Below, piece after piece: positions 1-43,245 of a stretch of DNA of 57,300 nt (its first letter is position 1; every line of letters begins with the position of its first letter). Source of the DNA: Hydrurus foetidus (lineage: Eukaryota); contig UYFQ01000427.1 in NCBI GenBank assembly GCA_900617105.1, positions 1-57,300 on the forward strand. Direction: 5' to 3'. The notes beneath the pieces were generated by a model. The model was given only the letters and a program-made list of their open reading frames with translations, had not been told where the DNA came from and ran no database searches. Position numbers and translations under genes: made by a program.

Positions 1-1490
1 GGTCCCGCTTCATCTGACGGATCAACCTCTGCCTTTCCCACTGGATCTAAATCGGCCTGCAGAGGGGAAGCATCAGCGGGTACGATCTCAACTTCTGCTA
101 AGTCGGTTACGGCGTGATTGCTGTCATCCTCTAGTACCCCTCGACTTGGGTCTAGTGGGTAGGGGCTATCTGGATCGGGTAGTGGCTGTTCAATCAATTC
201 TTGAGGCACGCTTTCGATGGTTGTCTTTCCAGCAAGCTGCCGTAGACGGTCAATTGCATCCTGAGTCAACGGGGCGGGCCTGAAGGTATCTCCTTTCATC
301 TCGGCGAGCGTAGAGAGGTTGAAGCACCAGTGTGTCCCTTTGAGGTTGCGTGTGGTCCCGAGCCACAGGCAGTAGTCTGCGCGAGGTGCAGCGGTGTTGC
401 TCCGTGGTCCTGGCGCACGTTGGAGAAATCCAGTTGTACCAAACGCATATGGTGCATCGACCTTATAACTCGGGGCCCTACCTCGAAATGACGTGTATGC
501 AGGGAGATGACCTGGTGCATTGCACTTTGGAATCATGTTAATGGTATGCACTACAAATGCGATGAGGGCGGCAGCGAGTCGCGTAGGCAACGGATAAGGT
601 AAGCTGTACAGAGTCGACCTAGCTTTGTTTTTGACGTGCCTTATTGCCGATTCAGCATGAGGTGTGTGTGAGCCGTGTCCGAGGATATTTAGTTGGGCAC
701 CCAACTCCTCTACACCAGAACGTGCTGATCTTACTGCCCCTTCGCCATCAGATGTCACTGTTCTAACATAAAACCCCTTTGACTTGTATTGATTAATGTG
801 AAGGAGCAAAGCCTTGCCTGCCCTCGAGCGCGAGCCCTCGGCAACCTTCGGACCTGATGCGGATCTGTCTTGGCCCGGCCCGAGATGAGTTACCATAACG
901 AGACCCAGGAGTACAGAGATACTTAAAAAGAAGACTTGACCGAGAAAGTAGAAGACATCGACTTGAAGCTCCTGGGACACAGACTCATGCACAAGTATCT
1001 GTTCGTCTTCACGGCATTTGTCTGTCTTTTGAGTTCCTTGGCCCATCTGGTAAGCAGCTGGAGTTCCGTATATGTTTTGAGCATTGACTAAGTCTGATCG
1101 AGTAAAGTCGAGATCTTTCATTGAACCGCGTTGAATAATCTCTGCAGCGCCTTTGTATCTCACAAATCCCATACGCTTTATGAATTCATAGGCCTTACGA
1201 GCACTTGCTAGCTGCCTTACAGAGTACTTCGAAGGACTGTGAGTCATGTATACTGGGACAACGTTGTTGATGTCCATGGTGTAGCGACCTCTAATGCAAA
1301 CGAAGGTAAGAGTTGGGCCACTTCTTGGCACGGTGATAAATGTGTCAGTGTCTTCATCATAGTGAACCGAATGAGTTTCCTTCAATTTGTGGTAGCTAAT
1401 TATATTAGCTTTCATGGAAGGGCTGTAGTAACCCTGGATTCCCATGTCCTTAATTGTAGCCACTTTGTTGATCCGAACTTTGTCTCCAAA
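1..1490 (-). pseudogene. Copia pol fragment (protease C-terminus, integrase)
   Basis: Manual translation gives ARKAYEFIKRMGF..VNAQNIYG (CoDi-type pre-integrase without HHCC) and the D,D,E core. Confidence 0.8.
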
Positions 1491-2853
1491 CTTGGACTGT
1501 TACAGGTGATTCGGCGTTGCGGATATCAATAGCGATCGCGGAGCTGCTGATTAAGTGTATACTCGACTGAGTATCCAGCAGGATGGTGGTGTCTTCTCTT
1601 CTCGAGTCAGCTGTCAGAAACACATTCCTAGCTTTAACTTCACCAACCTCATGTGAAGTATAGAAGATCGTTTCGTCCTCGGCAAGTCCCGTGAAGTGTA
1701 CTCTCTTCTCCGGGCAGCTCGAGGATCGATGCCCTCTCTTGCCGCATGTCCAACAGACGATGTCGTCAGGTGTTATGGATTTGGTGTTCTCAGAAGCAGC
1801 AGCGCCGTCATGTGCGGCATGCGATGTATCAAGCAATTTCTCTGGTGCTCCTCGACCCTTCCCGCGACCACCACGGCCGCCACGGCCACCTCTACCGCGT
1901 CCTGAGCGACCTCCGCGTCCACGTCCTTTCCCACCGTCTATGTGCAAGTCGTCTGCCCTTGATAGGTAAACACTTTCAAGAGCACCGCCTCCTGTGCCTT
2001 TGAAGCGTATAATTTGTGTATCTTTTATCTCCTTCCACAGTGTGGAGCTAGCGACTGGGAGGTCCGCGATACCCCTCCTTTCATTATCGAAGTAGTCCTT
2101 AGTTAAGGAGGCATATCTCGACATGTCCAATCGGTTCAAGATTCCGATGACAAGCTCCTCCTCTGGTATCACGGGAAGTCCTACAGAGGCGCGTTCGAGT
2201 TGGTGGTCCTCCACCCTCTTTCTGAAGGCGAAGCTTGTCTCATGCTGGAACATTCTCAAGTTGGACCATAACATGTTCACCCTTTCTCTGTCTTGCCCGG
2301 GGTTCCCACTTTGTCGGGCAATGTGGGTGGCGCGGATCCTGCCAATGAGATAAAGTAAGTCCCTGTTTAAGTACGCTTCTGTCCATTTCTCGTTGTCTTT
2401 GACTTCTGCTCTTGATGATTCGCTGAGTTGTGCGTAGACGAGTGCAAAGACTGAATGCTTATTTTCCATAATCTTCTTGGCTTCTGTTTTCCAATGTTTG
2501 TGGTCGCTGAAGTACTCAGCGAGGACGTTTTTGCCGATGTTACCCGCAGGAATATCATCTGGCATCTCTGGCTCCTCCTCCTCGATCCCATATTCCGGCG
2601 GAGTTGACCAGAACGCGAAGCAGATGGAGGCCTTGTAATTAATCGCCACATGCTCGCCCATCGTCTGAAGGAATTCGATGGGCTTGTTCTCTTTTCCGGA
2701 AGCTCCGAAATTTAGGTTTGGGAGTTCCGGGTTGCTGCCTTTAAACTTAGGCTCTCGGTATGATCTTGACTGACCAGCCGTGGGAGAATGCCTTCCTCGG
2801 CCGCCTCCCCTTCCTTGGCCTCGTGGACCTCGTCCGTGTCCGCGTCCAGACAT
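1450..2853 (-). CDS. Copia gag plus start of protease; frameshift near 1490 into pol
   Basis: 467-aa ORF with RGG-rich termini, CX2CX4HX4C knuckle and LLDTQS protease motif. Confidence 0.88.
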   Translation of the reverse strand: MSGRGHGRGPRGQGRGGGRGRHSPTAGQSRSYREPKFKGSNPELPNLNFGASGKENKPIEFLQTMGEHVAINYKASICFAFWSTPPEYGIEEEEPEMPDDIPAGNIGKNVLAEYFSDHKHWKTEAKKIMENKHSVFALVYAQLSESSRAEVKDNEKWTEAYLNRDLLYLIGRIRATHIARQSGNPGQDRERVNMLWSNLRMFQHETSFAFRKRVEDHQLERASVGLPVIPEEELVIGILNRLDMSRYASLTKDYFDNERRGIADLPVASSTLWKEIKDTQIIRFKGTGGGALESVYLSRADDLHIDGGKGRGRGGRSGRGRGGRGGRGGRGKGRGAPEKLLDTSHAAHDGAAASENTKSITPDDIVCWTCGKRGHRSSSCPEKRVHFTGLAEDETIFYTSHEVGEVKARNVFLTADSRREDTTILLDTQSSIHLISSSAIAIDIRNAESPVTVQVWRQSSDQQSGYN

Positions 2854-2950
2854 GACATTTTCTGCGCAGATTCTCTCTGATTCCTTCCTGATTCTCTCAG
2901 GACTAGCTTGCTCTCTAGATGCTCTCTATTCCAAGCGTCTTATTTCTTTG

Positions 2951-3374
2951 TGTTCGGTAAAATCGTGAAATTCACTTTTGATTCTTTCCGGCGACTGATG
3001 CAGTCAACCTTTCTAGACAGAATCGTGTATTTCTAACTTGTGCTTGTAATATCTTTGTGCTTGTAATATCAACCTGAAACTCCTTGAAGACAACTCTGCG
3101 ATTGTATAGGCGCGCTTTCCTATACGCTCAAGAGTCTCTAGTGAGAGGAGTTTGCGAAACTGGCTTGGACTTATAATTACTTGACAAAGAAATATGAGAG
3201 TTGCAGTAGAATACTCTATCTATTTCTTATGAGATGACGATGTGCCGTTGCATTCATCGACTAAATCGTACTTGATCTACCAGATCGTTTGGATATCCTT
3301 CATCCACGTCACGATACATTCAACTGTCCTACGACAGCCATCATTTGTGGATTGTTGAGATCATCACTTCAACA
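2951..3374 (-). repeat. Putative 5' LTR of the first Copia (424 bp)
   Basis: TGTT...AACA termini. The inner edge abuts a 10-nt segment complementary to an internal LTR site. No second LTR is in the window to confirm the boundaries. Confidence 0.55.
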
Positions 3375-3486
3375 AGATTCCGTATCCTCCATCCGGTAAA
3401 CTTGTACAGGGGATACCGTAAACCGTAAATCCCAAACAAATTAGAGTGGTGGAGCAATCTGGAAATAATTCCGCTTTTTGGGGGGT

Positions 3487-4115
3487 AAATCCGGATTGAA
3501 ACCGTTCCTTACGGCACGAGTTGATCTGGGATTTCGTAAAATCACCCTATGGGGCAGAAAATACGTGAATTTTTCCAGAACTCAAAAACTCAGAACTCGA
3601 GTTGTTCTGGAAAAACAGGGCCATTTTTCCAGTTCTACTGCGGTTCGTGTCACTGAGCCACCGTACTCACAACTCAACTCCATCTTCACCGCGCCTCCCG
3701 GTCCCTCTCTCTCACAATGAAGCTGGGGTGTGTGTTGCCTTACTAAGTTTTGTTAATCTACTATGGGTGCGCTTAGATTGCTCTAGGGACCCCGGCCCTT
3801 CCCGATTTCGTCCCCGAAGGGATAGATTAGGTTGCCCGGGATATCACCTTCCTTAGAGCGACAATATAAGCGATCAAAAAACAAAACAAAAACGATTGAT
3901 TAAATAAAATGATAGGCATGGTTGGCTACGGGGCAAAAGATCACAGCACGAAGTTACCGTCGTACGATATGTGAAGTTGAAACAGTATTCGATTTGAAAT
4001 CTGTTCAAATTTATGCCGGACGTGTACCCCGCATTCCAGTACTGGAAAGTGTGCATTAGTCACTCACTCTGCGGAGAACCTGCACAAGCGTCCACTAGCT
4101 ACCGCCCATTCTCAA
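3487..4115. repeat. Long direct repeat copy 1 (matches 16087-16771)
   Basis: Near identity at offset 12600 over 3487-3957 (3 substitutions seen), then two indels (~64 bp and ~8 bp). Confidence 0.93.
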
Positions 4116-4335
4116 TTCTACTGCGGTTCGTGTCACTGAGCCACCGTACTCACAACTCAACTCCATCTTCACCGCGCCTCCCGGTCCCTCTCTCTCACAA
4201 TGAAGCTGGGGTGTGTGTTGCCTTACTAAGTTTTGTTAATCTACTATGGGTGCGCTTAGATTGCTCTAGGGACCCCGGCCCTTCCCGATCTCGTCCCCGA
4301 AGGGATAGATTAGGTTGCCCGGGATATCACCTTCC
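4116..4335. repeat. 220-bp split repeat B (other copies 3633-3852 and 16233-16452)
   Basis: TTCTACTGCGG...GATATCACCTTCC seen three times. Confidence 0.93.
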
Positions 4336-4365
4336 ACCCGATGTCTCCCCGAAGGTGACCTTTGC

Positions 4366-5538
4366 CTATCTGGTTGGTAAGCACCGTCCGACGTGATCTA
4401 CCAGAGGCTTCACTGTTCCTTGCGCCCCCAAGTTCACGTTACACGCCAACGGTCCTAATGCTACAGTAGAGTAATCATAAATCGTGTCGTACACATTTGA
4501 ACCGTCCGCATAGTTTCCCCTGTCCCTACGATCATCTGATGACGCTCCTAATCCCCTCATCTGCGACATGCCTCCTTTGCGTAGAGAGTGAGCCGAGAAT
4601 CGTTCAGGTGAGAATCCCGCGTTGACCGCCATATCCTTTACTGCACATCTTATTATCTCAGCTGACAGTCTCTTCTTGAACACCTTCTTCGTTTGTACCG
4701 GAGCGGATGGACATAGATTCCAGCACCATTTGTCTCTTGCTCGCGCTCCCTTGTGCGACGATGCTTCTACCTCGCAGGCGACTATCTTGCAATCTGGATC
4801 ATCATTGATAGCCTGCGCCAGTCCCGCCCCCGACACTACCCGCTGATGCCCCCCTTAAATGATTTCAGTTACGAACGACAACTGTCATACCTGCACGCAG
4901 TGATTCTCTGATGATGACTCCGCTGCAGTGAACTCGCTTACTCTCGCTACTTGATCAAATCCCCACATAAGCCCAAGATAAGTCATCCTATCATCGACAT
5001 CTCCCCACTCCCAAGCCTTGTTCACCCACAATCTCACCCTGGCTTCCATCAGCATGTCCTCGCTAACCGGGAGCGTTGCCCTGCTTTTCGCATCCCTTTT
5101 GAACTCCCGGATCTCATCACATGATGGCCTGCACGCTGCTCTTGCGCTCGTTATGATTTGATGATCAAATCATTCCACGGATCTGAGCGCTGCGATGAAG
5201 TGGTGCCTAATCCCAGCGCTCACGCATGTGGCCTGTCTCCCTCTCATTTTCCCTATCTCATATCTCTCTTTGAAGAACAGCGCAAGGGTGACTGCCCTCT
5301 CTGCGTCGCTGCGAGCCTGGTCCAGGTACACGTCCCCCTGAACATAGCTCGCTGAAGAATTCCCAATGAAGGACACCCAGTCCTTCCAGTCAGCAGCGTA
5401 GCCGTTTCTCGTACCCCTTGTAACTGCTTTTGTGAGGACCTGCCCTAGCTCTCGTCCGGGTCCACCGCTCACTACCACACAGCCCGTTGTAGGCCGTTCC
5501 AATGCGGCCCCTTCCTGAACCCGACGTTCCGATCGCAC
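4366..5538 (-). pseudogene. Tyrosine recombinase ORF (frameshifted)
   Basis: GFDQVARVSE (catalytic R), AHSLRKGG (HxxR), RGNY and a C-terminal Tyr. Split into ORFs 5170-5538 and 4366-4836. Confidence 0.88.
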
Positions 5539-5543
5539 CGACC

Positions 5544-8012
5544 CTACAAGGTAGAGGGAAATGGTGGAGTAGTGGATGGGTTAGTCACGGCCTTTTCCAC
5601 CTCGCTCAGCGCGCTTCTCAATTCCCCCCAAAACCCTAAGAATGTTCCCTCCCCCTCCAAGCTCCTCTTCGGATCGCAGCATGCAAGTAAGGTTTGTACT
5701 TGAAAATTTTCTTGCAAGTTTACTACGATAATCTGACTCAGTCCCATCGTATCAAGAACTTCCCGCACTCCAACGCCTCCCGACTCCTCCGACCGTGATA
5801 ATCTATCGCAACGCCAGTTATCCTCTCCGGATATATGGACGCTCTTCTTCACATCTAGGTTGAAGCGAATGCTAAGCAGGGTGAAAACCATGGACGCATT
5901 CGTGACAAGTTGCCCTCTGGTCCTCTCCGTCTCAGCCCATGTAAGCGCCGCAACGCTATCCCCCCTAATTTCTATGTTCGCGTCCCTCACTCCCAGGAGT
6001 ACAAGCCCCACCATTCCAAGAATGCAACCAATGTACTCAGCTGCGTTCTGGAATGAGGAGTCGGACCCAAACCCGAATCCTCTGAGGTCAACGGCGCCGC
6101 CCCCCATAGCCACCTCTATGCCGTTTGCCTGCCTTTTATACCACAGGATGCCTGCCCCCGTGAGGGACGCATCAAACTCCACGACGTACTCCAACGTCTC
6201 TGGCACGAAGGATTCCATCCGGCGTGTGTATCGCTGGTCATCAAACGAGACGAGATACAGCATGGCCCGCCACCCTCGTATCGCCCTCTGAGTTTCCTCA
6301 GGTAAAAGGAATAAAGCGTGACGACTCTTGCGCCCGGACGTAGCCCGATGCAGAGCTCCACAGAAACGGCGCATAGCCCGACATATCTTAGAGTATCTGC
6401 TTCCCCATGAGGCCAGCTTTTCCGCTGTCTTCAGCGAGACCTTCTTATCCAAGTTCGTCGTAAAGAAACCGTAAACGGCATTCAGCAAGTTCTTCCGCGA
6501 AATCGAAATTAGACGCAGTTTGATGTCAAGGATGTACCCGAGTACGTCAAGCCGAGTCCCGGTCTCTGTCTTGTCCTCCGCAATCGTATTTGGTCCGAGG
6601 AGGCTAGTGCACACGTCCTTGGCGCGCTGAACTTCTTTGTCGAGACCCTGGGCGAGACACACACCGACGATGTCGTCGACATACATTTTGCACCTGCCTT
6701 TTAAGCTGTGCTGTAGCTCCCACTGAATCCCGCGAGACACGACCTGGAACGCCGCAGGTGTGCACATCCAGCCGAAAATGCCACAGATTCGTTCGCCATA
6801 AATCTCCATCCCAAAGTATTTTGCCGACTCAGGATGCAGGGACATCAATTGGTAGGCTCCTCTAAGGTCTGTCTTCCACAGCCGTAAGTCCTCCCATTGA
6901 ACTAGTGGATCAATACGAACCGCCTCACTATAGAACTCGAGAATCATGCACACCATCTCATCGATGGTAGGCAGTTCTATTTTACCCCACCAGCTCTCGG
7001 CAATCTGCTTGGATTCCTCACAGTTGAGCGGAGTACCATCGCAGAATGACATGTCGCCGATGCATCGGCCCGACGCTTTGCCTTTCTTGGGCGTCCACGA
7101 TGCCTTCCCTACGTGCAGTCCATCAATCAGGGCAATAGCCTCAGTCTTTGGAAGACAGAAAGCTAGCCCCTGGGCATGTAGATCGGCTAGCATTCCATCC
7201 ACTGCTTGGTGAACCTCTACGTACGCCGGTCGCATGGGAGTATGGTCTCCCTTTCCATTTGGGACAAACCCTGCAGGCAGTGGCACTCTCATTCCCTTCG
7301 CAATATCGAACAGACGCGTACGCTCAGGATTGTCCGCTCGAAGCAGCTCGACTCAGTGGGCGGACATTCTCGTAGCTCCGATTTTCTTCAGCCGCATCCT
7401 CACCATCGCGCTAAAATCGAGCTGCGCTGCCCTGAATAAGCTCATGTCACTGTCGACCAGGTCCTGCGGGAATTTAAATCCTCCTGCCCACTTGACGGCC
7501 TCCTGTTTACCATAATTACCGTCGGCACTCGCTATGGACTCCCTCGCGAGCTCCTCCAGAGTGTCTTTCGGTAGCCCCTCGTCTGGCGCAAACATGCTTA
7601 TCGCAGTGTCTAGAATACTTTTAATAAGTTCGGGGCTCATCCTTTCCCTCTGAACATCGTCCAAGTTTGACTTTCTGTCAGCAGCCCGACCTCTCAGACT
7701 GTTCGTTAGGAGTTTACTCTCTCCTCCGCTTGGTACTTTAGAGTGCTGCGACTCCCTGACCTCCCCTCCTTCGCACGGTGCTCGTGAGTACTTCGACCCT
7801 CTCACCTCCCCTCCTACGCTTGGTGCTATCGAGTGCTGTGACTCTCTGACCTCCCCTCCTACGCTTGTTGCTACCGAGTGCTGCGACTCTCTGACCTCCC
7901 GTCCTACGCTTGTTGCTACCGAGTGCTGCGACTCTCCGACCTCTCCCCTGCCTAAACTTCTCAGTGTGGGTGTTACTTCTGGTGGTAGTGCCCTCGGGTG
8001 GCTACCACGCAT
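5544..8012 (-). pseudogene. Reverse transcriptase-RNase H ORF of the YR element (one in-frame TGA at 7353-7355)
   Basis: KTDLRGAY, IFGW and YVDD RT motifs; RNase H motifs EFDAS/AEY/RGDS/CDRLSR. ORFs 7353-8012 and 5544-7292 are in the same frame. Confidence 0.9.
7722..7950 (-). repeat. 45-bp coding tandem repeat x~5 (GGEVRESQHSVATSV)
   Basis: Visible in both DNA and protein. Confidence 0.9.
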
Positions 8013-8015
8013 GAC

Positions 8016-8273
8016 CTACGGCTTGAAACCTTTGATACCACCCACTAGTGGAGATAGGCAATTCTGCATCCATAACGGCATTGTAGCTATAAGGCCAACA
8101 GCTGCCTCCTTCGTCATGTCACTGAGCTTTCCGTGCTTAAATTTGCAGCTTGCTCCCTTTAAGCACTTAAGCGGGGTCCCGTTTTTCTTCACCGCTCGTA
8201 GCAGCAGTCCTAGATGCGAGCCACACTGATTTGCTTCTACGTTGTTTACCTCAGATTCCTGACTGGTTACTTT
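8016..8273 (-). pseudogene. C-terminal part of YR-element gag with a C-x5-C-x3-H zinc-finger-like motif
   Basis: Removing the Gypsy and one 4-bp TSD joins ...GKAK to VTSQES...CLKGASCKFKH in frame. Confidence 0.8.
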
Positions 8274-8538
8274 TATGGTCGTTGGTGACCAAAGGACGGT
8301 GGACGAGGACGATGGACGAGGACGGAGGGCGAAAAACGAAGATGGAGGAGGTGGAAGAGTATTCTTATAGTTTACAGCGAGAAACAAGCAGTAGTATCTA
8401 CAGTGATGTGTACTCGCGTGGAAACGAAAAGAAAAGAAAACTGTACCGGACTTTGGGTCCGTTCTAGAATCTACAGTACAGGTATAGTATACAGTCACAG
8501 TGTATCCGTACATGCAGTACAGATACAGTGAGGCTACA
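8274..8538 (-). repeat. 3' LTR of Gypsy 1
   Basis: Matches 13750-14014 and is preceded by a polypurine tract on the minus strand. Confidence 0.93.
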
Positions 8539-8743
8539 CTACCCCTTCTTCCCTTTTCTTTTCCAATGAACTCTACTAATATTTGTATGAGAGTGGGAAA
8601 GAAAGACGAAACAAAACACATTTTGAAAAAATGAGAAACTTCGAAAACGATGATGTCAGACTCTTACTGACTAAATTCCTCCAAAAAAGAATATAAAAAA
8701 ATAGGAGGTAAATTCTTCATGAATAACGTTTCGAGTGAAGAAA

Positions 8744-11700
8744 TCAACGGTGTTGTTTATTGATTAGTTTTGTCAAATTATTTTGACGCAAGTAATCATG
8801 AAGTTTATCAACATCACGAAGATTGGAGTAAGGCTCCCAAGTGTTTTTATCAGAAGGGTAATTTAACCATTTGACTAAAAACTCAATCTTGGAGCGTTGA
8901 TGAGGTCCACGGTGATCAAGGATGTCTTCTACGAAGTATTCCATATGGTCACGACGCGCGACATCAACAGGATTTGTAATCGCTGGATCATACAGAAACG
9001 GTTTCATGGCAGATACATGATATACCGCTGTTTTTGTGTGATCAAATCGTATAGAGTGTAACGAGAATTTTCGCCACTGACGACTTTTAATGGACCTCTC
9101 CAATGCGTATGAAGACGTGTTGGAGGTGATCCATCGCGATAATGTACAAGAACATATGAGTCGCGAGGGTACTCAATATGCTGAGAGATCTGAGATTGGT
9201 TTTGATGAAGTAAATCTGTACGAAGAAGTTCTTTGGCCGAAGCTTTGAGAAGACTATCTTGTATTTTTAATAGATTGCTCATACGTGCCGACAAAGGTTT
9301 GTCATTAATAACAAGTCTCTCAGATGGAGGAAGAAATATTCCTCTGTCTAATTTGAGTATATTGCCGAAAAGCAATTGAGATGCAGAGATTTTTAAACGA
9401 TCACTGTGATTAGAATTTAAAATTCGTTGCACAAATGGTAGTGATGTTGAATAATCATCAAGCGTTACGTTATCGTAAGTTAAAGCACGAAGGTGTCTAT
9501 TAACTTCTTTATTCATGCGTTCAACAATGGCGTTTTCTTCTTTAGAATAAGCTAACGTTAAACAGTGTTGAGTGCCAATAAGAGTTAGAAACTCTTTGAT
9601 AACTTCGGCAATGAAGTGTGGCCCATTATCAGAACGGAGTTGGAGAGGTGCGCCGAAACGACCGAAATGTTGCAAAAGGCATTGAGCAGTCGAAAGTGCC
9701 GAAGCATCTTTAGTATGAAACAGCTCAACCCACCTTGTGAACGTATCGATAATTACGAGTACGTACCCCCGTCTGGAAACGGTCCTACGAAGTCTATGTT
9801 AAGGCATTCCATAGGTGTGTAAGTAGAAGTCGAAAAGCCGTGAGCATGAATTGGGATCTTTAACATGCTCATCTTTTGACAACACGAACAGTGATCTATG
9901 AACCACCTGACATGCTGTCGTTGAAACTGCCACACCTTGTTGTTGTCTTTGAGACGCTTTAAAGTGCGCTCAAGACCAAAGTGACCAACTTGTGAATTGT
10001 GTACATTACTTATAGTATTGTATTGTTCACGAGTCAGTTTGAATTTTTCAATAATATTGGCAGACATGATTGTCTCAAGTGAATATTCTTGAGGATGGTC
10101 AATCATGTTGTTACGACAGAGTCGAGACATCGAATCGGCTATGTCATTGTTAACACCAGAAATGAATTCAATTTTAAATGAGAATTCTGATAAAGCCATA
10201 AGCCAACGAACAATCATTGGATTTGAATGATTTTTAATGTATAACAAGTTACGATGATCGGTGCGTAAAGTAAACATCCGATCACGTAATAGCGATTTTA
10301 AATACGTGCACGCAAAGAAAATAGCATATGCTTCTTTCTGTATAACTGCCCACCTAAGTTGAGCTTTGTTAAGCGATTTACTAACAAATGCTACGGGCGT
10401 CTCTTTTCCGTCAACTAACTGAAAAGATAAGCACCTACACCGTAATCCGATGCATCAGTGTGCAAGTAAATCGGATCGGTGTCACTTAAAAAGTGCATTG
10501 TCGTGCATTTTGCAGTTTCAGATTTAATTAACTCAAATGCTGAGTCAGCTTCTGGTGTCCAAACTATTTTTTAGATTTATTATAATCAACAAGCAACTGG
10601 TGTAACGGATATAGTACACTTGAAGCATTTTTGATAAAATCGTGAAAATAGTTTACCAAACCTAAAAAACTTTTAAGTTGTTTAGATATATCTGGTTTTG
10701 GAAAATCTAAAACTTGCCGTATTTTTTCTTGTGACATTTTTAGTCCTTCAGCAGAAAGGACTTTGCCAACATAATCAATTTCGGAATAGCCAAGATAACA
10801 TTTATTTGGTTTAAGAAATATTTTATGTTGTCGAAAGCGTTGAAAAACAAGACGGAGTCTAAAAACTAATTCGTCAGTGTCTTTGCCGAAAACATTGCAA
10901 TCATCAATGTACATTTCGCATATAGTGTAAATCAATCCAGCTAATACAACAGTTGCCATGGTCTGTTGAAAATAAGAAGGAGCTCGTTTAGGCCCAAAGG
11001 GCAGACGAGTGAATTGATACACGCCACAGAAAAGTATGAATGCAGTGTATGCGCGTGCTGCCAGTGTAAGCGGTGCTTGATGATATCCTTGAGTGAGATC
11101 AAGTGTAGCGAATACTTTAGCTTTATGAGCACCAATTCGACGTAACATTTCATTTATGTTAGGAATGGGCCATGATGCATCTTCGGTACAATCATTAAGA
11201 TTTCGATAATCTATACACATGCGTTTGGTTCCGTCAGACTTTGGAACCATAAGCACTTGGCTGTAATAAGCCGCATTTGATTTCTCGATAATCCCTTGCT
11301 CTTCAAGTTTCGCGAGTTGACGTATAATGTCAGCTTGATTTGCAGTGGATTGTGGTCGAGGAGGTGTTCTATTACGGGAGACTTTCCATTTTACGTCATC
11401 CACGTTAAGTTCAAACGGTGGGATATCAGCAGGGCTAGCCGGAAGCTCACTGCTAAATATATCCCTAAATTCGTTACATAGTAAACGGAGTTTATTTTTC
11501 TGATCTTCATCACCTGCTATGTGTATTAGCGAGAGTGAATCTGTATCAAGAAATTCATTAATCCATGGTGAAAAGGAGTCATTTAATGAATCATCAATTT
11601 CATCTTCATCAGGCGGCACAACTCCAAATAGTTGTTCCGACTCTTGAATTAACGAAGCTAGTATGACATGTGTTTGGGTGACTGCCGGATCTTTCATTTG

Positions 11701-13674
11701 GGTTAATGAAAGATCTTTTGGGGTTCCTTTAGAGGTTTGCAAAGTCTCTTCGGGCTGACAGCCACATGTCATGACCACATCTTCAGAAGTGGAGACTCCC
11801 TTTATTGGGGTTGGTCGCGATGAAGTGCTTGATTTTATTTGATCTGGGAAAATCGAGAATAGATCTAAATCTCGTATAATTTTTCTTCCCACTATTAGAT
11901 CAATTTGTGTTTGTTCTAAAACATAAGCCGTGATTTGAAAAGAAGAATAATTATTTAAATCAGGGCAAAAATAAGAAAGTTTTAAGTCGATGGTTTCAGA
12001 AATTTCATAGCAATGATTATCTAAACCACTACAAACTTTACACGCTTTCTTAGAAGATTTAGAAACATGTTGTGTTAAGTTAAGATTATTTATAACACGC
12101 CTAGCTATAAAATTGCTGGCGATCGATCCCGTATCCAATAGAGTGAAGACTCTATTTTTCTCTTCCAGCGAAGTTTGCTGAGAAATATGAGAAATAAAGA
12201 AGGGGATAAGATGTTTATCTGACGAAACGGAAGAGTTGTCAATTGACGACATATTAAGGTTGTAAACGTAGTCACCTTTTTGTTTCTTCGCGACACGAGT
12301 AGTGTCTGCTGACGAGGCAGCGGTCTTAGAAGACGCAGAAGAAGAGGAGGAAGCGGAAGAAGAAGATGTTCCGTACGCGTTTGGAATGAACGTCGCTTTG
12401 GGATCGATCTTCAAAAGATCTTTGCCTCCTTCCGACTGAAGGAAAGGTTTCTCGGTACTGTTAAAGTACGGAGAAGAGCCGAATCGACAAGTGGCTACTA
12501 AGTGGCCAAGTCTCCCACAGCCGGAACAGTGGGGTTTGTCAGATTGCTCAGGCTTCTCGTCCTCTCGTTGCCGTTTTTTAATTCGTGGCTCTTGAGGAGG
12601 ACGGTTAGAGTTTTTGATCTGGCGAGAATGATCGCCATAAGTCGGGTGAACGTCTACAAACCGTAAAGCATCAATTGCTTCTCGTAGCTTTCTTAGTTGC
12701 GCACGCCACACGAATCGAAAATCATCGACCGTGATAAGACGTGGCGTTCTATCGAGAGTGCGGTACAAAACTGACCTCCAATTAATGGGTTCAGCTGGCA
12801 ACTTATCAATAAGAATTTTAGTTGCTGTTAACTGCATGGCAGCTGACACCTCAGGGAATGCATCGACAATATCAGCTAAAAGCTGGTCTGTCTTTTCTTC
12901 CACTGATGGGTTCTTCAGGTCAAATTGAATTTGAACCTGAGTAATGGATTCAATGAATCCTAGTTTATCCGTTCTGGACGTCGCAGTTGCAGGAATTGCC
13001 AAATTCAATTCTCTACAAAAATTCTGATTAGTCCAGTTTCTCCAGTTGTTACAACTGTCTCGACGATCAGGGTCGGTTGCAAATCGAAGTTGCAAAAGGG
13101 TTTTAAAAGATTGGAAGTTGCTGTGATGAACGACATCAACTGGCCGAAACGGCGTTCCATTCGAGAGGAGAACCTCTGAAACTCTTTGAACTTCTTGCCA
13201 AGACGGCTTGGCGCTCAACTTAGGAGCTTTCTCACCAACTTGCACGTACTGAGTTGGTGGTGCCAAAGCACGTTGATTAGCAGATCTATCGACCGAAGTC
13301 GACGTGATCTCAGCCGAAGCTGGTGTCGCAGCCGAAGCTGGTATCGCAGCCGAAGCTGGTGAAAGCGATAAAGCAGACAACGCAGAAATGACAGGCACAT
13401 CAATAGCAGACACGACCGCAGGCCCCGACGTCGGCTGAGACGCCGGCGCAGACAGGTCTCCGGCGGGGTCCTGAATCGCAGGTGATCCAGGAGACTCTAT
13501 GTCTTGGACGTTGCGCTGCGTATGCTTAAGATACGCCTTCCGTGCTGCGACGGCGACAGCGCGCGGCTGAGCTCGTCTTAAGATGGCGCTGGTGTTGTCG
13601 GTAGTGTTGGTGGTTGCCTTAGCGTTGGTGGTTGCCTTAGCCGAGGCTTTGGCACGGATGCGGCGAATTGCCAT
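8744..13674 (-). pseudogene. Gypsy 1 gag-pol (gag, PR, RT, RH, IN, chromodomain), several frameshifts
   Basis: ORF pieces 10564-13674, 9753-10277, 9004-9675 and 8744-9103. CSGCGRLGHLVATC knuckle; chromodomain EFLVKWLNY..NTWEP. Confidence 0.92.
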
Positions 13675-13749
13675 GATCCGAAAAATTTCCCGAGAAAAGA
13701 TGGATGAGTAGAAAGAAATAATTTTGGTCGTAGAACCAAATATCGATAT

Positions 13750-14014
13750 TATGGTCGTTGGTGACCAAAGGACGGTGGACGAGGACGATGGACGAGGACG
13801 GAGGGCGAAAAACGAAGATGGAGGAGGTGGAAGAGTATTCTTATAGTTTACAGCGAGAAACAAGCAGTAGTATCTACAGTGATGTGTACTCGCGTGGAAA
13901 CGAAAAGAAAAGAAAACTGTACCGGACTTTGGGTCCGTTCTAGAATCTACAGTACAGGTATAGTATACAGTCACAGTGTATCCGTACATGCAGTACAGAT
14001 ACAGTGAGGCTACA
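13750..14014 (-). repeat. 5' LTR of Gypsy 1 (TG...TA)
   Basis: Matches 8274-8538. Confidence 0.92.
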
Positions 14015-15911
14015 CTTTAGCCTTTCCCTTCGCCCCAGGTGCTGGGGTGCCTGCACGCTCCCTCTTGAGCCTGACCTGAACGGAGTATCGCTTCTCGAGT
14101 ATCGTAGCCTTAGCAACGTCGGTGAGCTCTTGTACCATCTCCTCTAGCATTGCTCTCAGAAGAGCCGTGCATCCCGCCGGGCATGTGACATCGCTCTCCG
14201 GAAATGCGATGGTTTTATCCTCCTTGCTAACGATTCTGAAGAATCTCGTGATTGTCCTCTCTATAGTGTGTACGAGGAAACCAGAATCCCTTAGCCTAAG
14301 CGGTCGCAAGTGGTCTCTCAACGCTTCGATGAGGTCATCGCACGCACCCGCGAATTGAGGTGAGAAGAGCACTTCGAGGGCCACCTCTAATGTCTCGATG
14401 GCGCTCACAAGTGGTCCGTTCTGTAAGACACAGGGATGCGCGGCAGTCGACAGCTTCGACCCCGCGCAGAATGAATCGATCGTGAGCTCTCCCTCACCGA
14501 AGTCCCCCGTTAGAAACAGCTCAAGGGCCTTTGAGCTATTCGCTATTGCTGTCCCATTCAGCAACGATACTTTGCTTGCCCTCAGGAAAGCTGAGCCTAC
14601 AGGCTACTCAAGGGCTACTCATCCCGCCGGGCATGTGACATCGCTCTCCGGAAATGCGATGGTTTTATCCTCCTTGCTAACGATTCTGAAGAATCTCGTG
14701 ATTGTCCTCTCTATAGTGTGTACGAGGAAACCAGAATCCCTTAGCCTAAGCGGTCGCAAGTGGTCTCTCAACGCTTCGATGAGGTCATCGCACGCACCCG
14801 CGAATTGAGGTGAGAAGAGCACTTCGAGGGCCACCTCTAATGTCTCGATGGCGCTCACAAGTGGTCCGTTCTGTAAGACACAGGGATGCGCGGCAGTCGA
14901 CAGCTTCGACCCCGCGCAGAATGAATCGATCGTGAGCTCTCCCTCACCGAAGTCCCCCGTTAGAAACAGCTCAAGGGCCTTTGAGCTATTCGCTATTGCT
15001 GTCCCATTCAGCAACGATACTTTGCTTGCCCTCAGGAAAGCTGAGCCTACAGGCTACTCAAGGGCCTCAGCTTCGTCCTGAACGATCTTCCAGTAGGCCT
15101 CAGTTTGGAGCTTATACCCAGACCCAGCCATATGTTTCCGGAGTCCCTTCTCGGCCGCCCTCCACATAAACTCCAATTGATCACACCTGACTTGCAGGTT
15201 GCTCTTATCCCTTATCTGCAGCCTCACACCGTCTCTCGTAACTAAAAAATACCCTCCTCGTTTCTCACCTTCTGTGCGCTCACCCCCCGCTTCCTGCGCG
15301 CTCTGCGCTGGCCTTTTCTCATGTAATTCTGGCTGGAGAGCCTTACCGCTGACCGCTTTCTCCAGTCTCATCTTCGCTGCGATTGCCGCGAAGTCCCCTG
15401 ATGCCAGCAAGAAATGGGTTGGTGATTGAATTATGAGACGCCTTTGCGCAAAATCCACTTCACCGACTAGGTCACTCAAATATCCGAGACACTTTATATA
15501 CGCCAGAGGGTCGGGCGGACCGAGAAACTCGAAGAACACAAGGTTCGAACACGCTAAAAAATCCATGTCGCGCGCTTCGTTCTCGTCGGGCTCCTCAATC
15601 GCGGCGACTGCAATATCGCTCGACTGCACTCTCGACCTTACCACACGATTGATGTTGAACTCTGCTGTCCTGCGACCTGCCTCCGTCCCGAATGACGTTA
15701 GCGACGTGCTCGCCGCAGTGATCCAAGACTCAAATTCAGCTGGTGCTACTTCGTAGTCCACCAGCTGGCTGTATTTGTCCGATACAGCAATCGACCTGTT
15801 GCGCTTTCTCGTAGGGACGCTGGCGCTACCTACGGCACTCTCAGATGTGCTCCCCAGATTCTGCGACGTAGAAGACGAACTGGAAGTTTCGCCGTTGCTC
15901 GCGCCGCTCAT
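14015..15911 (-). pseudogene. YR-element gag/ORF1 (premature TAG at 15054-15056; internal 450-bp duplication)
   Basis: ORF 15054-15947 continues in frame into 14619-15014 and 14010-14564, and rejoins 8016-8273 across the Gypsy. Confidence 0.75.
14170..15065. repeat. Exact tandem duplication, period 450 bp
   Basis: 14170-14615 equals 14620-15065, with a TACT junction. Confidence 0.95.
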
Positions 15912-16086
15912 CGCAAAGAAATTTCGGAAAACGTTCTTTGCAGTCAAGGTCAGAGGAAAACGATTGGCCTTTTAGCTGTCGCGACTATCGTATTACTTCG
16001 CTTAAGGGGCCTCAGGTACCACCACACCCCGTCCTCGCCGCTTTTTGGAAAATCGCGAGGCCTCTAGATTTCGATCGAACTGCTCA

Positions 16087-16862
16087 AAATCCGGATTGAA
16101 ACCGTTCCTTACGGCACGAGTTGATCTGGGATTTCGTAAAATCACCCTATGGGGCAGAAAATACGTGAATTTTTCCAGAACTCAAAAACTCAGAACTCGA
16201 GTTGTTCTAGAAAAACAGGGCCATTTTTCCAGTTCTACTGCGGTTCGTGTCACTGAGCCACCGTACTCACAACTCAACTCCATCTTCACCGCGCCTCCCG
16301 GTCCCTCTCTCTCACAATGAAGCTGGGGTGTGTGTTGCCTTACTAAGTTTTGTTAATCTACTATGGGTGCGCTTAGATTGCTCTAGAGACCCCGGCCCTT
16401 CCCGATCTCGTCCCCGAAGGGATAGATTAGGTTGCCCGGGATATCACCTTCCTTAGAGCGACAATATAAGCGATCAAAAAACAAAACAAAAACGATTGAT
16501 TAAATAAAATGATAGGCATGGTTGGCTACGGGGCAAAAGATCACAGCACGAAGTTACTCACTTCGACGATGTCAGATCGTACTACTGTCTTGCTGATAAT
16601 ATATGACATGTGCATGCTACTCGTCGTACGATATGTGAAGTTGAAACAGTAAAAATCTGTTCAAATTTATGCCGGACGTGTACCCCGCATTCCAGTACTG
16701 GAAAGTGTGCATTAGTCACTCACTCTGCGGAGAACCTGCACAAGCGTCCACTAGCTACCGCCCATTCTCAAAACTCGAGTTCTGAGTTTTTGAGTTCTGG
16801 GAATTTGAAAATTCCAAGAACCCCGAACTCATTCCGTAAGGAACGGTCTGATCCGAAATTTG
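16087..16862. repeat. Long direct repeat copy 2, bracketed by an imperfect inverted repeat (16087-16203 vs 16772-16862)
   Basis: CCAGAACTCAAAAACTCAGAACTCGAGT and ACCGTTCCTTACGG occur inverted on both sides. Confidence 0.85.
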
Positions 16863-17089
16863 ACTTGACGACTTTTCGCTGTAACCGGTCCCAGAGCGGG
16901 GACCGAAAACAAGGATATATATTGTGCCGGTCACAACTAAACGGTGCCGCAGAAAGAAAATTGCGGCGTATTCGTGTTTTTGACAGCAGAATCAAAATAA
17001 CAGTTATTTTGACCTCAGTAAAAAACACGAAAAACCTCCCCGCAAAATAAAGGTTAGGACCCACTAGATCTTTTTTCAGTAAATAAATC

Positions 17090-17276
17090 CCACCTTACAA
17101 CTTTCGGCACCCAACTCTCACCTTTCAACTCTACTCACTTTACAACTCCCACCGTACAACTCAACTCACCTTACAACTCTACTCACCTTACAACTCTACT
17201 CACCTTACAACTCAACTCACTTTATAACTCTCACCTTACAACCCTCACCTCACAACTCAACTCACCTTACAACTCC
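17090..17276. repeat. 17-bp subterminal array (ACTCACCTTACAACTCT), left TIR
   Basis: Direct reading; degenerate units. Confidence 0.9.
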
Positions 17277-18209
17277 GACTCATAGGTGGCGGAAATTAAA
17301 AAAAAAGTTTATTGAAGTGTTTTTTTTAATCTCAGTATAAAAACTGTTATTTCTTTAGTTTCGCTTTTTCAATTTTTTTCTAGTGAACAGCCAATAATTC
17401 TCTGAGGCATTCAATCGAAAGGCACTTTATGATTTTCTTTAGATAAAGTGGGCATTGATCATGAGCGACAAACTTTCTGGAGCCAACCGCACCAAAATGC
17501 AAAATCTTGGAACCCTCGGTCCTGGTGGTGTGAGCCCCACGCCGTACCACTAAGCCACACAGGAACTGCGTACTCGACGGCAAAAATACACAAACAAATA
17601 GTACGTGCATACTTAGGCTCATCGTCACCTCGGGTCAACACTTCAGAGAACACTGTTAGATTCATCTTTTTGACGTTATGAAAATTGAAATTCAAAAATC
17701 TAAAAAGTTATGATCGTTATACCGTGGAATCGGCATACTGCATGGCCGGAAGTACTACCGTGCGTGCATCTATATCTGCTACTAGTTTACAACTGATGTA
17801 ATTAAGTTTGTGTGTAGTCTGACATTTTCTATTCGATATCCTTTTTGAAAATACCGATTTAATTCTATAGATGACATATTTTCAAATCATTTTCAACTGA
17901 ACAGCGAATTATAGTGGCAAAATCTTTTATGTGCTGATGACTTGAATTATTAAAATGAATTATTAAAAATCGTTCTTATTATTTATTGTAATGTGGAATC
18001 AAAATATATATGATTCATTCGATACTGTTTTATCAGAAGTCAGAATTCGACCACGCAGAGCTAGGCTTAGAGTTACGTACGACAGTAAAGTGCCTTCGAT
18101 TAATTGTTGATTATGTTGGGATTTAGTGACGAAATTTGCAATCGATGATGGTATGGTGGATGGTTCCCTAAAGTCGTATAGACGATTCAAGTTAGATTTC
18201 GTATATGAT

Positions 18210-19881
18210 TTAGTAATGCATAAGATTAGAAATCGTTGAAACATACTCGAGTGGGGTTAACTCATTATTATTATACCGTTGTTTGCTTCTTGCTAGCCTT
18301 CGCTCTTTTTCCTTCAGTTTGTGTGTGAGTGGGACAAAGATTGCCTCGTTATTCATCTGATTTTGCTCCAGTTCTTTGGCAGTCTGCTCGATTTGATTTT
18401 TGTGATGAACTTCCACAGGTTAGGATTGCTGTTAATCGTTTGGACGAGATGAGAATGCCAACCTTCCATGTGATTGTTTGTTCTGTTCTTGTTCAATCCA
18501 TAGACGTTCCAAGACCGTAAACGTCCCATCCAAGTATGGTTGAAGTACTGAAGGAAGTCATTTACATGAGCAGCACTAATGTCGTCTCCGACTAATGCCA
18601 TTAGATCGTTGGTGAGAATGTTGAGAACTTGGCGAAGATCACAGTCCCCATTATCAGCGATCTGTGTGGGAGTTTTCTCGTGTCGGAGAAACGCTGCTGC
18701 AAAAAATTTTCTCATCACCACTCTTAGACCAGTCTCTTCCCGATCGTATGCTACTTAATGATCATGATAATTGAAAAAAATCAAATCTCAGGTAAAGAAA
18801 GGAATACTATAAATTTGAAACTTACTTTCATATTGTGCTGAATTCTCCTGAATAGCGCTTGACAATAATGAAAGTGACATCCCTTTTTATCAACATCTGG
18901 AAACTTCACTGTCAAAGCGGCAAAAATGGACAGTTCAAAATCTGACATCGACTTCTGCCAGTTGATATCGTAGTTCCAATGAGCGGCTTTCTCGATGACG
19001 AGTTGGAAGAACCTTTCGTAAACGATATGAGATTTCCGCTTAGTAAGCAATACATTCTCGGAAGCAATCTGTTGTCTAAAGAATCCTCATATCCCACGTT
19101 ATCATCGTGATGAAATGAGCAAATGGTAATAAGTTGCTGATAAGGTGCTGGACAAACTTTAAAAGTCCCATCCATCTGAACTACTGTTGCATTGCACATT
19201 TTCTTGAAGAATTTCCTTGTACCAAAACATAGAATATGGTTCTCGAGAGGTCTGCCAGGAATATTTGGAAAGGAATCTTGGAAAAGTAGAAATTGATGCC
19301 CATTCTCAGCTCTTCTGTATTCTTCTGGTATAATAACGTCGTTGTAGCCAATAGGTAATCTTGGTAAGACAGAGAGCCTTCGTCGACTATAGGCGCTATG
19401 CAGACTGTCCGCAGTAAACATCTGTCCTGCAGCAACTAGATTATCCAGCTGAATGGGATTCATCACATTTGCATATGCAACGTATAGGTCCACACCTGAA
19501 AATGATACAAATCAGAAAAACAACTTTTTTATAGTGAAATACGGTATTGAACTTACCAGCGGTTGCTTCTCTAAGCACATTGTTCCTTGCATTTCTGACG
19601 GCAATGTCCATCTCATCTGTAACGCAATACTCATCGTCATGATCAGTCGCTACGACGTTGATGATTCCATCTGTCATTCCATCGTGACCTGGACCCGCCA
19701 CATCAAGGTCCACCTCATAATGAACCTTCGCCTTACAGCCTTTGCGAATGTTTACGCAAACCCAATAGCATTTTGTTATTTCTCCATTAACATCATGAGC
19801 AAATTTGGTTTTAGAAAATAACTTGTTGTTCATCTGCAACAGATTTTTTCCTTTCGCGGACTTCGTGCCAAAATGAAGCAT
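18210..19881 (-). pseudogene. MULE transposase with FLYWCH-like N-terminal zinc finger; 2 introns (19556-19496, 18825-18751) and frameshifts
   Basis: YWVC..CKAKV..H; MDGTFK; MSDFE; GCHFHYCQA; RTNNHMEGWH. Confidence 0.88.
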
Positions 19882-20384
19882 CGTCCAAAGAAATTTAGTA
19901 AGTTGACGAGATTTTCTATCAGGAATAGAAATGATATGATATCAATTATAACTTTTTAGATTTTTGAATTTCAATTTTCATAACGTCAAAAAGATGAATC
20001 TAACAGTGTTCTCTGAAGTGTTGACCCGAGGTGACGATGAGCCTAAGTATGCACGTACTATTTGTTTGTGTATTTTTGCCGTCGAGTACGCAGTTCCTGT
20101 GTGGCTTAGTGGTACGGCGTGGGGCTCACACCACCAGGACCGAGGGTTCCAAGATTTTGCATTTTGGTGCGGTTGGCTCCAGAAAGTTTGTCGCTCATGA
20201 TCAATGCCCACTTTATCTAAAGAAAATCATAAAGTGCCTTTCGATTGAATGCCTCAGAGAATTATTGGCTGTTCACTAGAAAAAAATTGAAAAAGCGAAA
20301 CTAAAGAAATAACAGTTTTTATACTGAGATTAAAAAAAACACTTCAATAAACTTTTTTTTTTAATTTCCGCCACCTATGAGTCG

Positions 20385-20635
20385 GAGTTGTAAGGTGAGT
20401 AGAGTTGTAAGGTGAGTAGAGTTGTAAGGTGAGTAGAGTTGTAAGGTGAGTTGAGTTGTAAGGTGAGTAGAGTTGTAAGGTGAGTAGAGTTGTAAGGTGA
20501 GTTGTAAGGTGAGTAGAGTTGTAAGGTGAGTAGAGTTGTAAGGTGGGAGTTGTAAGGTGAGTAGAGTTGTAAGGTGAAAGTTGTAAAGTGAGTAGAGTTG
20601 GAAAGTGAGAGTTGGGTGCCGAAAGTTGTAAGGTG
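20385..20635. repeat. 17-bp subterminal array (GAGTTGTAAGGTGAGTA), right TIR
   Basis: Reverse complement of the left array; longer and more homogeneous. Confidence 0.9.
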
Positions 20636-20786
20636 GGATTTATTTACTGAAAAAAGATCTAGTGAGCGATGACCAAAATAAATTCTCCCGTTTAGTTATG
20701 ACCGGCACAATATCGTTTTTGAGTAGCTCTTGTCGAGATAAGTACGGTAATGGTACTATTGTATAGTCGCTTCGTATCATTTAGAG

Positions 20787-22260: not shown

Positions 22261-25200
22261 CCTCGACTCCCCTTCTGCATCTGCCCGACCACAACGGTGC
22301 ACTTGTGACCGCTAAAGATCCTGAGAAGGCAACCGGTAAAACCGGAGGTGCCAGGAAGAAATTTTCTTTAACTGACATTACCTGTCATGTTTGCGGTCTC
22401 AATGTCACTACGCGAGGAACTGCAGTGAGCGGAAATCATCTCCGGAGAAAGCTCACGTAACTCCAACCGACTCAGACAATATCGACTCAGATGACTACGA
22501 CGTAGCACTAATCACTACCGTGGAATCGTGCCTATTCTCAAGATACGACGTGTTGCTGAATAATGAGGCATCACTTAATATTTTTAGTAATGGAGATCTA
22601 CTTACCGGCTTAAGGAAATCAGACAGGACAATCATTGTTGGTGGGATACAGCTAGGGGGAGGAGTGGCAGTCGACGAGGAGGGAGACTTTAGAGAGCTGG
22701 GACGTGTGTTCTATAGTGCAGCGGCATCCGCTAATGTGCTGTCCTTTGCTTCTCAGGTCGACTCGGGCGCAGCTGTAAGATACAACCACAATGGTGATTG
22801 CTTTACATTACAGCCACGAAACAGTACAATCGTCTACAGATTCGGCAGAAAAGATGTACCGGGCAGTGAGGGTAGGTTCTACAGCTGTGATTGGCGAGAA
22901 GTCATGAAGGAATCAGCATTGGTAGCCACGGTAGAGAGCAACGCAAAGGCATTCACAAAACGAGAAATCGAGTAAGCACGGAAGGCGAGGGAACTATTGG
23001 CACGAATGGGCTTTCCCACAGTCACGCAGGCGATGGCGATTATGAACTCTGGAAGCAACTTCGAAGTTACATCTCGAGATTTCCAGATAGCCGATGCGAT
23101 ATAGGGAGCTGACATCGCCTCTCTCAAAGGAAAGACTACTAAAAGAGCGACACCTTCAGCAGATATCACCGTCAACGCGAAGATCGTACAACAGGATCAG
23201 ATCCTGGCGATAGATATCATGTTCATCGACAAGACAGCTACTCTAATTGGCGTGGCGACTCCTTTAGGACTGACAATCGCGTTCAGCCTCAATCACCTTG
23301 TTATGAATAAAGCAGTGAGAGCAGCGAGAAACATCAAAAGAGGCATCGACCACTTTATCACGACGCTAGCGTCACAGAATTTCAAGACTAAGATTATCAT
23401 GAGCGATGGAGAGCGATGAGTTACCAGTTTAATACCTGAACTTGAGGCGATTGGGATCGAAATGGACATCAGCGGCGCCGGAGGACATGTCTTCAGCGTA
23501 GAACGGCGAATTCGTGTAATTAAGGAACGGCTACGCTCTCACGTAGCATATCATCTGCCATGCACTTTATCGAGCATGGGAATAGCGATGTTTATTCTGT
23601 ATTGCGTATCCCGTCTCAACTACGAACCGTACGGAGTACGAGAATGGGGACCCAGTCCAAGAGAGGCTTTTGTCGGACGTAAGGCTGACGGTAAAAAGGA
23701 TTTCAGATGTTCTTTCGGAGACTATGCCCAGTGCACTGTGCCCAGCACTGACAGCACCATGAAGGGCAGGACTGAGGACTGCGTCGTGATGCTGCCGCTG
23801 GGGAATCGAACGGAAAGTGTTCGAATGTTGTCGCTAGTCACGGGAAGACTGGTGAACAGAGACCAGTTTAGGGTACTTCCTATGCCACTATAAGTTATTC
23901 TAAGGATGAACGAGTTCGCTCTTAAAGATGGGAGAGTTAAAGGGAAGGGGGAGTTATCCCAAAAGCCAAACACATACATTATGCAGAGTGGAGTGGGGAA
24001 CGGTCTACCTGATGACACCATAAATACCCTAACGAGCAACGGAGTCGACCCTTCCTTCATGATTGGTAGCGACGAACCCAATCTGGACTTAGCGGAGCCA
24101 GAAGAGATTGGGGGTGACGACATCGCTATTCCTGACGACAGACATGAAGGGAATAGGGGTGATGACGAAGGGAATGGAAGTGCTGAGGATGTAGAGATGC
24201 AGACCATCAACACTGATTTTGCCGATGATGTGATCCCGCTTTTCATTCCACATGGAAAACCGAAGGATGTAGACATGGGCGATCTGATACATAGCTTCGA
24301 GGGACTAGGTTCAGGGAGATATGACGACGAAGGCATAGTGGGTGAAGAGGATGGTGGGCCAACGGGTGCAGAGGTGAGCGGCGACGTCACTGATGTACCG
24401 TATAAGGATGCGAGCGGAGCTCAAGATACGCAGCATGTTAACCAACAGCGGGCAAATCGTCTAGACATCATGCAGATGTTTCGCAAGGGAGTAAATGGGG
24501 GGACACTGCTGACCAGATTGTACATCGAGCATGGTACGGACTGGAGAGAGCGAGTATTTAACATGTCAGTCAACCAGGCATTACGTACTCGAGGAAGAGA
24601 TGCGGAGATAATCATCATGAAGCAGCTCGGGCAAATCCTAAAGAAGAAAGTGTAGACTCCTGTTGACATCGGGTCGTTGTCATACAATGAGAAGAGAAGG
24701 ATCATCAGATCTAGCATGTTTCTAAAGGAGAAATTCCTTGTGAGCGGAGAGTTTGAAAAACTCAAAGCTCGACTCGTAGCGGGTGGAGATCAATAAGACA
24801 AGTCGCTCTACGACGATTTGTCTGCACCAACTGTCGGAACGAGCTCAGTGTTCACTGTACTCAGTATTGCAGCTTATGAGAATAGGGGTGCAGCAGTCAT
24901 CGATATCGGAGGAGCATTCCTGAATGCAAATATGGATACAGGACTACCTGTACACATGCGTCTGGACAAGAACATGTCGGGTATGATGACTAGGTTATCA
25001 CCCGAATACGAGCAATATGCTGACGCGAAGGGCTGTGTGGTGGTAAAGATAAGGTGTTGTATGGGTGCGTAGAGTCAGCAGCACTCTGGTATCAAAATCT
25101 GCGAGGGAGTTTCTCAGATTTGGGATACACACCGAACGAGTATGACATCTGCGTGTTCAATAGACGCAACGAGCAGGGTGCACAGTGTACTGTGGCAATC

Positions 25201-25617
25201 CACGTAGACGACTTGCTGATCACTAGTGTAAGTTCGCTCATGATCGAGGATTTAGCGGAGGGTCTGTCTAAAAGATATGGTGAGATTGCGAGAAAGAACG
25301 GGCCGATTGTGAACTATTTGGGCATGGTGTTTTATTTGGCTACACCAGGGAAAGTAAAAGTGAGCATGACGGGGTTCGTTGACGAGATGCTCAAAGAATA
25401 CGGGGTTACGGGGAAAGCCTGCACACCTGCGACAGAGGGGCTATTTGATGTGCGACCCGATATCGAGTCTGTGACCGAGCAGCAGAGAGTAATCTTTCAC
25501 AGATGTGTAGCGAAGCTGCTGTATCTGGCGAAGATGGCGAGACCTGATTGCCTCACTGCGATGTCCTTCCTTGCGACGAGGGTGAATAGGTGCACCTCGG
25601 ACGACTTAGCCAAGCTA

Positions 25618-26698: not shown

Positions 26699-26967
26699 TG
26701 TTGAATATATCTGCGTATATGGCACGTACACAATCTGTGTACTTACAAAAGCGTACTGCATCCGTGCGCCTGTATCCTACAACAGTAGAATAAAATGTGA
26801 TTGAATGAATTGAATGAACTCGTAGCCTTCTGACTGATGTATGCAGTCTAATTAACAAGTGTTTACTGATACGCTAGATCTTATTTTATGAGTCCTGATT
26901 GCTTCGGTCTCACGCCGCTGTACCCCAAGTACTAGAGTCGGCTGCGAGAACACGGATTCAATCAACA
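26699..26967 (+). repeat. 3' LTR of the degenerate Copia
   Basis: TGTTG...CAACA after PPT AGGGGTG; partly similar to LTR 42852-43179. Confidence 0.85.
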
Positions 26968-43179: not shown

Positions 43180-43245
43180 CACCCCTATGCCACATCACAA
43201 TCATCACTGTTCACGCATCACGCATAATTCTTCACAAGATAATGT

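Follow-up and report, generated by a model that had tools for sequence, protein, structure and literature searches.

Element B at the start of the window

The window, a 57 300-nucleotide stretch of repeat-rich eukaryotic DNA, contains several retrotransposons. Element B is a minus-strand Copia element located at the window start, and a pair of matching 10-mers lies at its 5′ end. The frame encoding Gag, with a CCHC knuckle, and the start of the protease occupies positions 1450–2853 (minus strand) and opens with an ATG at 2853–2851, 98 nt past the LTR. The protease–integrase frame (3–1499, minus strand) runs off the window, with the reverse transcriptase (RT) lying beyond it. One frameshift near 1490 was judged against relatives of ∼71% identity that have a single ORF. 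The order of a CCHC Gag followed by protease–integrase is that of Copia elements, and relatives of B with 50–74% identity carry PF07727 and align colinearly.

The 5′ LTR of B comprises 488 bp (2951–3438, minus strand), as delimited by contig ends and an inverted repeat. Public contigs from 20 runs in 13 studies cover part of the window. Four of these runs (X1, X3, X7 and X10) were compared with it, with X10 and X7 re-examined in finer bins, whereas the RNA runs X18–X20 (contigs, shares of 0.07–0.26) were left out of the comparison; all run data were assembled contigs. Within the LTR, 10 nt present in the window at 3041 are missing from the compared contigs. An earlier note on this DNA had placed the outer LTR edge at 3374; however, contigs of all four runs have G at 3375 and continue at LTR-like depth, and this edge was rejected and replaced by 3438, where the contigs of X10 and X7 cease to match. 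In its non-matching end past 3438, the X7 contig enters a purine tract that ends in ...AAGGGGTA (element sense) and resembles the AGGGGTG preceding TGTT in another Copia element of the window, element A, and in relatives. Because the X7 contig enters the polypurine tract of the lineage at this point, the outer edge was set at 3438 and the LTR start at TGTTTGG. The LTR ends are of the TG...CA type (TGTTTGG...CCGAACA, a 6/7 inverted repeat).

With the outer edge at 3438, the inner edge at 2951 proposed in the earlier note scores higher than all others of 42 CA candidates as a 7-nt terminal inverted repeat, with 6/7 matching; 3075, which that note had named as the alternative that would overturn its proposal, lies outside the ten best inverted-repeat candidates and was rejected. 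Under a 5-nt inverted-repeat rule, ten edge candidates were tied for B. The contig depth approximately doubles or more from the bin 2910–2950 to the bin 2951–2991 in X1, X3 and X10 and is flat in X7; in finer bins, the depth step of X10 sits at 2972 or later. One X1 contig ends at 2980 (2951 + 29), which fits a branch at 2950/2951 and equally a variant at 2981. The inner edge at 2951 can be regarded as well supported but not proven. Contig breaks at 3076, 2993, 3100 and 3228 were also considered as LTR flanks and were rejected; since they recur across runs on short diverged matches, they were attributed to related families. In addition, 3371 is linked to 3071 at a short common word by one small X7 contig (59 nt, depth 2), as expected of either a rearranged LTR or a chimera.

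Several other elements are present in the window. The LTR of B is adjoined by a retroelement at ∼3440–16771, which we take to be DIRS/Ngaro-like. It has split direct repeats (3487–3957 is identical to 16087–16557, and 3958–4115 is similar to 16622–16771) and an RT-like ORF at 5544–7352 with no Pfam hit, and it contains a nested Gypsy element at 8273–14016. A perfect 446-bp tandem duplication beside the Gypsy insertion (14170–15065) is either real or an assembly artefact. A further element at 17062–20664 has terminal inverted repeats of ∼700 bp that hold 17-bp tandem arrays.

The 10-nt match in the leader of B

The 10-mer TATTTCTTTG at 2941–2950 directly adjoins TGTTC at 2951, and its exact reverse complement is located at 3185–3194, with an 11th pair formed by 3184 and the terminal base of the LTR; in these respects the earlier note was accurate. 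In element sense (minus strand), the 2941–2950 site reads CAAAGAAATA, occupies the primer-binding position directly past the 5′ LTR and has no TGG. The 3185–3194 site (minus strand) would supply the first 10 nt of the predicted RNA and the self-primer. It comes after CTCTCA in element sense, again as described previously, and is directly followed, on the predicted cleavage side, by TCAAGT (3179–3184, minus strand), which may be compared with the ACAAGT or similar motif in element A and several relatives. Each of the two 10-mers occurs once in the window, in which no tRNA genes were found. The site is part of a 31-nt block at 3177–3207 (bounding contig ends at 3178 and 3206) that is common to subfamily contigs whose sequences to the left and right of it diverge by as much as ∼12%.

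An initiator-like TCA is located at 3195–3197 (minus strand), for which the predicted transcription start is 3194 (diatom TCAH+1W) or 3195 (the A). Initiators have been described as YCAYTYY in oomycetes and TCAH+1W in diatoms (PMC3599244, PMC4686930), and a predicted start of B near 3194 fits such a stramenopile initiator. In the predicted fold of the leader from 3195, the duplex between the two sites closes a domain (z of −2.73; 0 of 200 shuffles as good) and has a mean pair probability of 0.97, although the duplex by itself is weak (−8.0 kcal/mol). Furthermore, the 3′ base of the putative primer faces the base adjoining the LTR, as priming requires.

When every CA and CG in the LTR and leader of B was tried as the edge, exact complements reached at most 10 nt, compared with a mean of 7.2 nt in 400 dinucleotide shuffles of the same region (p = 0.022); the match taken alone is modestly above chance. 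A value of only this size would suit the view that, irrespective of the relatives, the match in B is accidental or stems from an edge picked after the fact in AT-rich sequence, as would the tie among ten edges under the 5-nt rule and the absence of a 3′ LTR junction at 2951 among the contigs displayed. We nevertheless consider this very improbable: the edge at 2951 is singled out by the 7-nt repeat to an outer edge that was fixed independently, TCA marks the beginning of the match and the downstream motif of the lineage comes after it, and B sits within a lineage that shows the trait.

Element A and the wider lineage

The edges of element A (42852–54648) were set from its pair of LTRs together with a target duplication of 5 bp, and its 5′ LTR is interrupted by a nested Gypsy element. 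The primer-binding position of A, TAATTGACTG (48126–48135, minus strand), comes right after the LTR, and its complement, 121 nt upstream, is located in the 5′ LTR at 54432–54441 (minus strand), with a 3′ LTR copy at 42962–42971. This 10-nt match gave p = 0.020 in the shuffle test used for B. The two elements share one geometry with different 10-mers, as the earlier note had recognized, but its description of them as unrelated did not hold: they are 25.5% identical over 501 amino acids of protease–integrase and fall on the same side of a split in the RT–RNase H tree. In this quick tree of unnamed elements only, in which seven relatives stand in for B (its RT being off the window), the clade of B (support 100), A and the tested loci are separated from 14 other Copia elements by a split with a support of 100. 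As A and B are distant kin, their common design is most simply explained as inherited, not independent. Two more decayed members of the family of A were observed at 22502–26967 and 55605–57299. The former, element C (3′ LTR at ∼26699–26967), has lost its 5′ end and keeps the site and an ACAAGT motif in its 3′ LTR; the complement of its site is absent from the window.

Relatives were collected as 70 loci from metagenome (51) and genome (19) collections, plus 45 whole contigs from further genomes; many of their contigs are collapsed circles with one LTR. A total of 26 non-duplicate relatives with a contiguous region from the pol stop to the gag ATG were kept, two of the ATGs being set by eye. 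Duplicates (L015, L027, L054, L057 and L124), partial re-fetches (L071–L082), weak matches (L050 and L051) and short or linear contigs without a contiguous pol-to-gag region were excluded. An exact complement of 9–17 nt directly after CA or CG was found in 22 of the 26 relatives (each p ≤ 0.025, 400 dinucleotide shuffles), and the other four (L025, L033, L059 and L065) missed this test; L033 has a 16-nt match, but at a non-CA end. When the edge was picked blind, from the polypurine tract and a 5-nt inverted repeat, a match of at least 9 nt was obtained for 12 of 17 relatives; this rule missed B and five of the 17 relatives, and nine of the 26 had no tract-defined start.

Together with A and B, the 22 relatives make up 24 positives, among which there are 23 distinct first 10-mers, so the design recurs with other letters, as had been predicted for self-priming. 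Cognate pairs match over a mean of 11.8 nt (24 elements), in contrast to 4.6 nt for non-cognate pairs (552 pairs, of which four reach 9 nt). None of the 24 positives has a TGG within 8 nt of the LTR edge, and in the same complement test the two Gypsy elements of the window reached at most 5 nt. The relatives are kin, and these counts do not represent independent events. The tested relatives also all lie outside the clade of B, and the evidence for covariation is that of the wider lineage: no member of this clade was found among the 51 metagenome and 19 genome-collection loci (best protease–integrase identity ∼31%), viral contigs yielded none, and five further genomes yielded 12 matches with only 24–31% identity.

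The motif at the start of the site played no part in finding the sites. Nevertheless, 21 of the 24 positives have CA where the site begins (2.6 expected), and 16 have TCA there (1.0 expected). This site-start motif matches both the oomycete YCAYTYY and the diatom TCAH+1W, the latter of which puts the +1 of B on 3194. The predicted fold barely forms the duplex in two of the 24 elements (pair probabilities of 0.06 and 0.10).

Contigs outside this set were inspected by eye. Among the linear contigs, matches were observed in L061 (16 nt), L083 (10 nt) and L041 (8 nt), none was observed in L005, L011, L026, L055 and L062, in which the LTR is incomplete, and only a 13-nt hairpin within the 3′ LTR was observed in L084. 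Among 21 contigs of other Copia clades, most of them incomplete and without LTRs, a TGG shortly before gag was seen in L098, L101 and L105. One clade (L024, L029, L030 and L033, also L011; support 99) has LTRs that seem to start and end with CG, not TG...CA. At L061:8500–9487, a lineage member adjoins, as judged by eye, an apparent large-subunit rRNA sequence. In addition, bin G001, filed as a bacterium, contains 67 Copia RT and 11 Gypsy matches (L055, L059, L062, L065 and L083–L122), indicating that eukaryotic transposon contigs were mis-binned in the prokaryote genome collection.

Predicted self-priming and known systems

The reading that we favor, with a probability of roughly 0.8, is that B is a Copia LTR retrotransposon that primes reverse transcription with the first 10–11 bases of its own RNA, in the manner of Tf1. 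Transcription would begin at 3194 or 3195, and the RNA 5′ end is predicted to pair back onto the primer site 244 nt downstream. The RNase H of the element would then cut after base 10 or 11, by analogy with Tf1, and the reverse transcriptase would extend the freed primer end across U5 and R. The plus strand may be primed by the AGGGG tract, and the primer would be retained and re-copied, keeping both sites in step.

The last step bears on another explanation, in which the match is a footprint of copying, a template switch or end repair having copied the RNA 5′ end beside the LTR, with no present role in priming. The matches are exact and stop sharply at the predicted start, as such copying would leave them. 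Furthermore, the main internal contig of X10 has 2944 T>C in the primer site, while the partner base is unchanged in the LTR contigs displayed; this leaves a G–U pair and not a compensatory change. Against this explanation, no other primer site is evident and an active element needs one, and a primer that re-copies itself would be expected under self-priming in any case. We regard a mere footprint as the most improbable of the explanations considered.

An unlikely, although less remote, alternative is that the duplex is real and serves leader circularization, packaging or a translation switch, with priming left to a different small RNA, for instance a fragment from within a tRNA. Half-tRNA priming, which does not need a TGG, is known in Copia lineages (PMC6317226). 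In some relatives (L023, L068 and L006), the distance between the paired site and the gag ATG is 5–18 nt and the ATG can be covered, and a TAAT or CAAT start is common to many sites. However, the 23 different first 10-mers in 24 elements would require many different RNAs, and one side of the pairing begins precisely at the LTR edge while the other begins at an initiator-like motif, which is the geometry needed for self-priming.

With most tested relatives keeping the design in different letters, the lineage of B likely copies itself without tRNA, and the design was likely passed down within a deep Copia lineage of stramenopiles to which A also belongs. We lean, somewhat beyond even odds, towards the broader view that this deep lineage, with families ∼25–30% identical, self-primes free of tRNA separately from plant TAR and Gypsy Tf1, either because the mechanism arose once more or because it has survived from long ago, with primer and site changing together by family. 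Finding the full sequence signature throughout much of a large Copia lineage of protists extends the range of self-priming and bears on the repeated or ancestral origin of tRNA-free priming, a question raised in PMC3601003. It also offers a direct test, namely of a Copia RNase H cutting an RNA–RNA duplex. Such elements would be overlooked or wrongly placed by annotation tools that insist on a tRNA site, and the match between LTR and primer site predicts their start sites.

To our knowledge, the demonstration of self-priming has been restricted to the Gypsy-type Tf1 of fission yeast, and its prediction in Copia elements has been limited to one plant lineage. PMC6317226 gives self-priming as demonstrated for Tf1 and predicted for the Gypsy element Tcn1 and plant Copia TAR/Houba. 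In Tf1, the RNA's initial ∼11 bases complement the primer site and RNase H cuts between bases 11 and 12 (PMC7175516, PMC4600332). Like the Schizosaccharomyces pombe elements Tf1/Tf2 and the Tf1/sushi group, Tj1 included (Ty3/Gypsy), B has no tRNA site and carries a self-complement. Unlike this chromoviral group, B has the Copia order, with integrase preceding RT, and groups with RVT_2 elements; its duplex is one of 9–17 nt across the lineage. Tf1 also has extra U5 structure, and in B the start site and the cut are predicted.

Fungal GalEa Copia elements lack a tRNA site and have a 'conserved hairpin site' (PMC5445492); they have a palindrome and no LTR complement, the reverse of what is seen in B. 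The two Gypsy elements of the window, which have no TGG site and no LTR complement, recall GalEa: each has at the primer position a 12-nt palindrome that includes the last A of the LTR (AATATTAATATT and AATATCGATATT; window 48497–48508 and ∼13738–13749) with a short hairpin next to it. In L128, the one testable Gypsy relative of four, a 10-nt palindrome of another sequence occupies this position (L128:6276–6287). By analogy, these palindromes possibly represent a third way of priming without tRNA, in this case within a Gypsy lineage.

The nearest ESM Atlas clusters to the RT–RNase H of A are RVT_2 clusters of three to four members each, with Bacillariophyta as the commonest taxon, which suggests diatom CoDi-like Copia elements as a lead only. 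A term look-up in the accessible text of two papers (PMC2806351 and PMC2774666) returned no mention of priming. No report of self-priming in stramenopile Copia elements was found in a search that covered few subscription journals.

For the plant Ty1/Copia TAR lineage (Houba and Osr-1), the criterion for self-priming in PMC6317226 is a complement of at least 10 nt starting 0–5 nt after the LTR. The leader of B has 10 nt at offset 0, or 11 with the terminal base, and no TGG. The mechanism is already known from the Gypsy-type Tf1, and B is likely a self-priming Copia element of a lineage without such a report among the literature searched; its host is stramenopile-like, as judged from named relatives of one gene in the window, and its likeness to TAR lies in the criterion.
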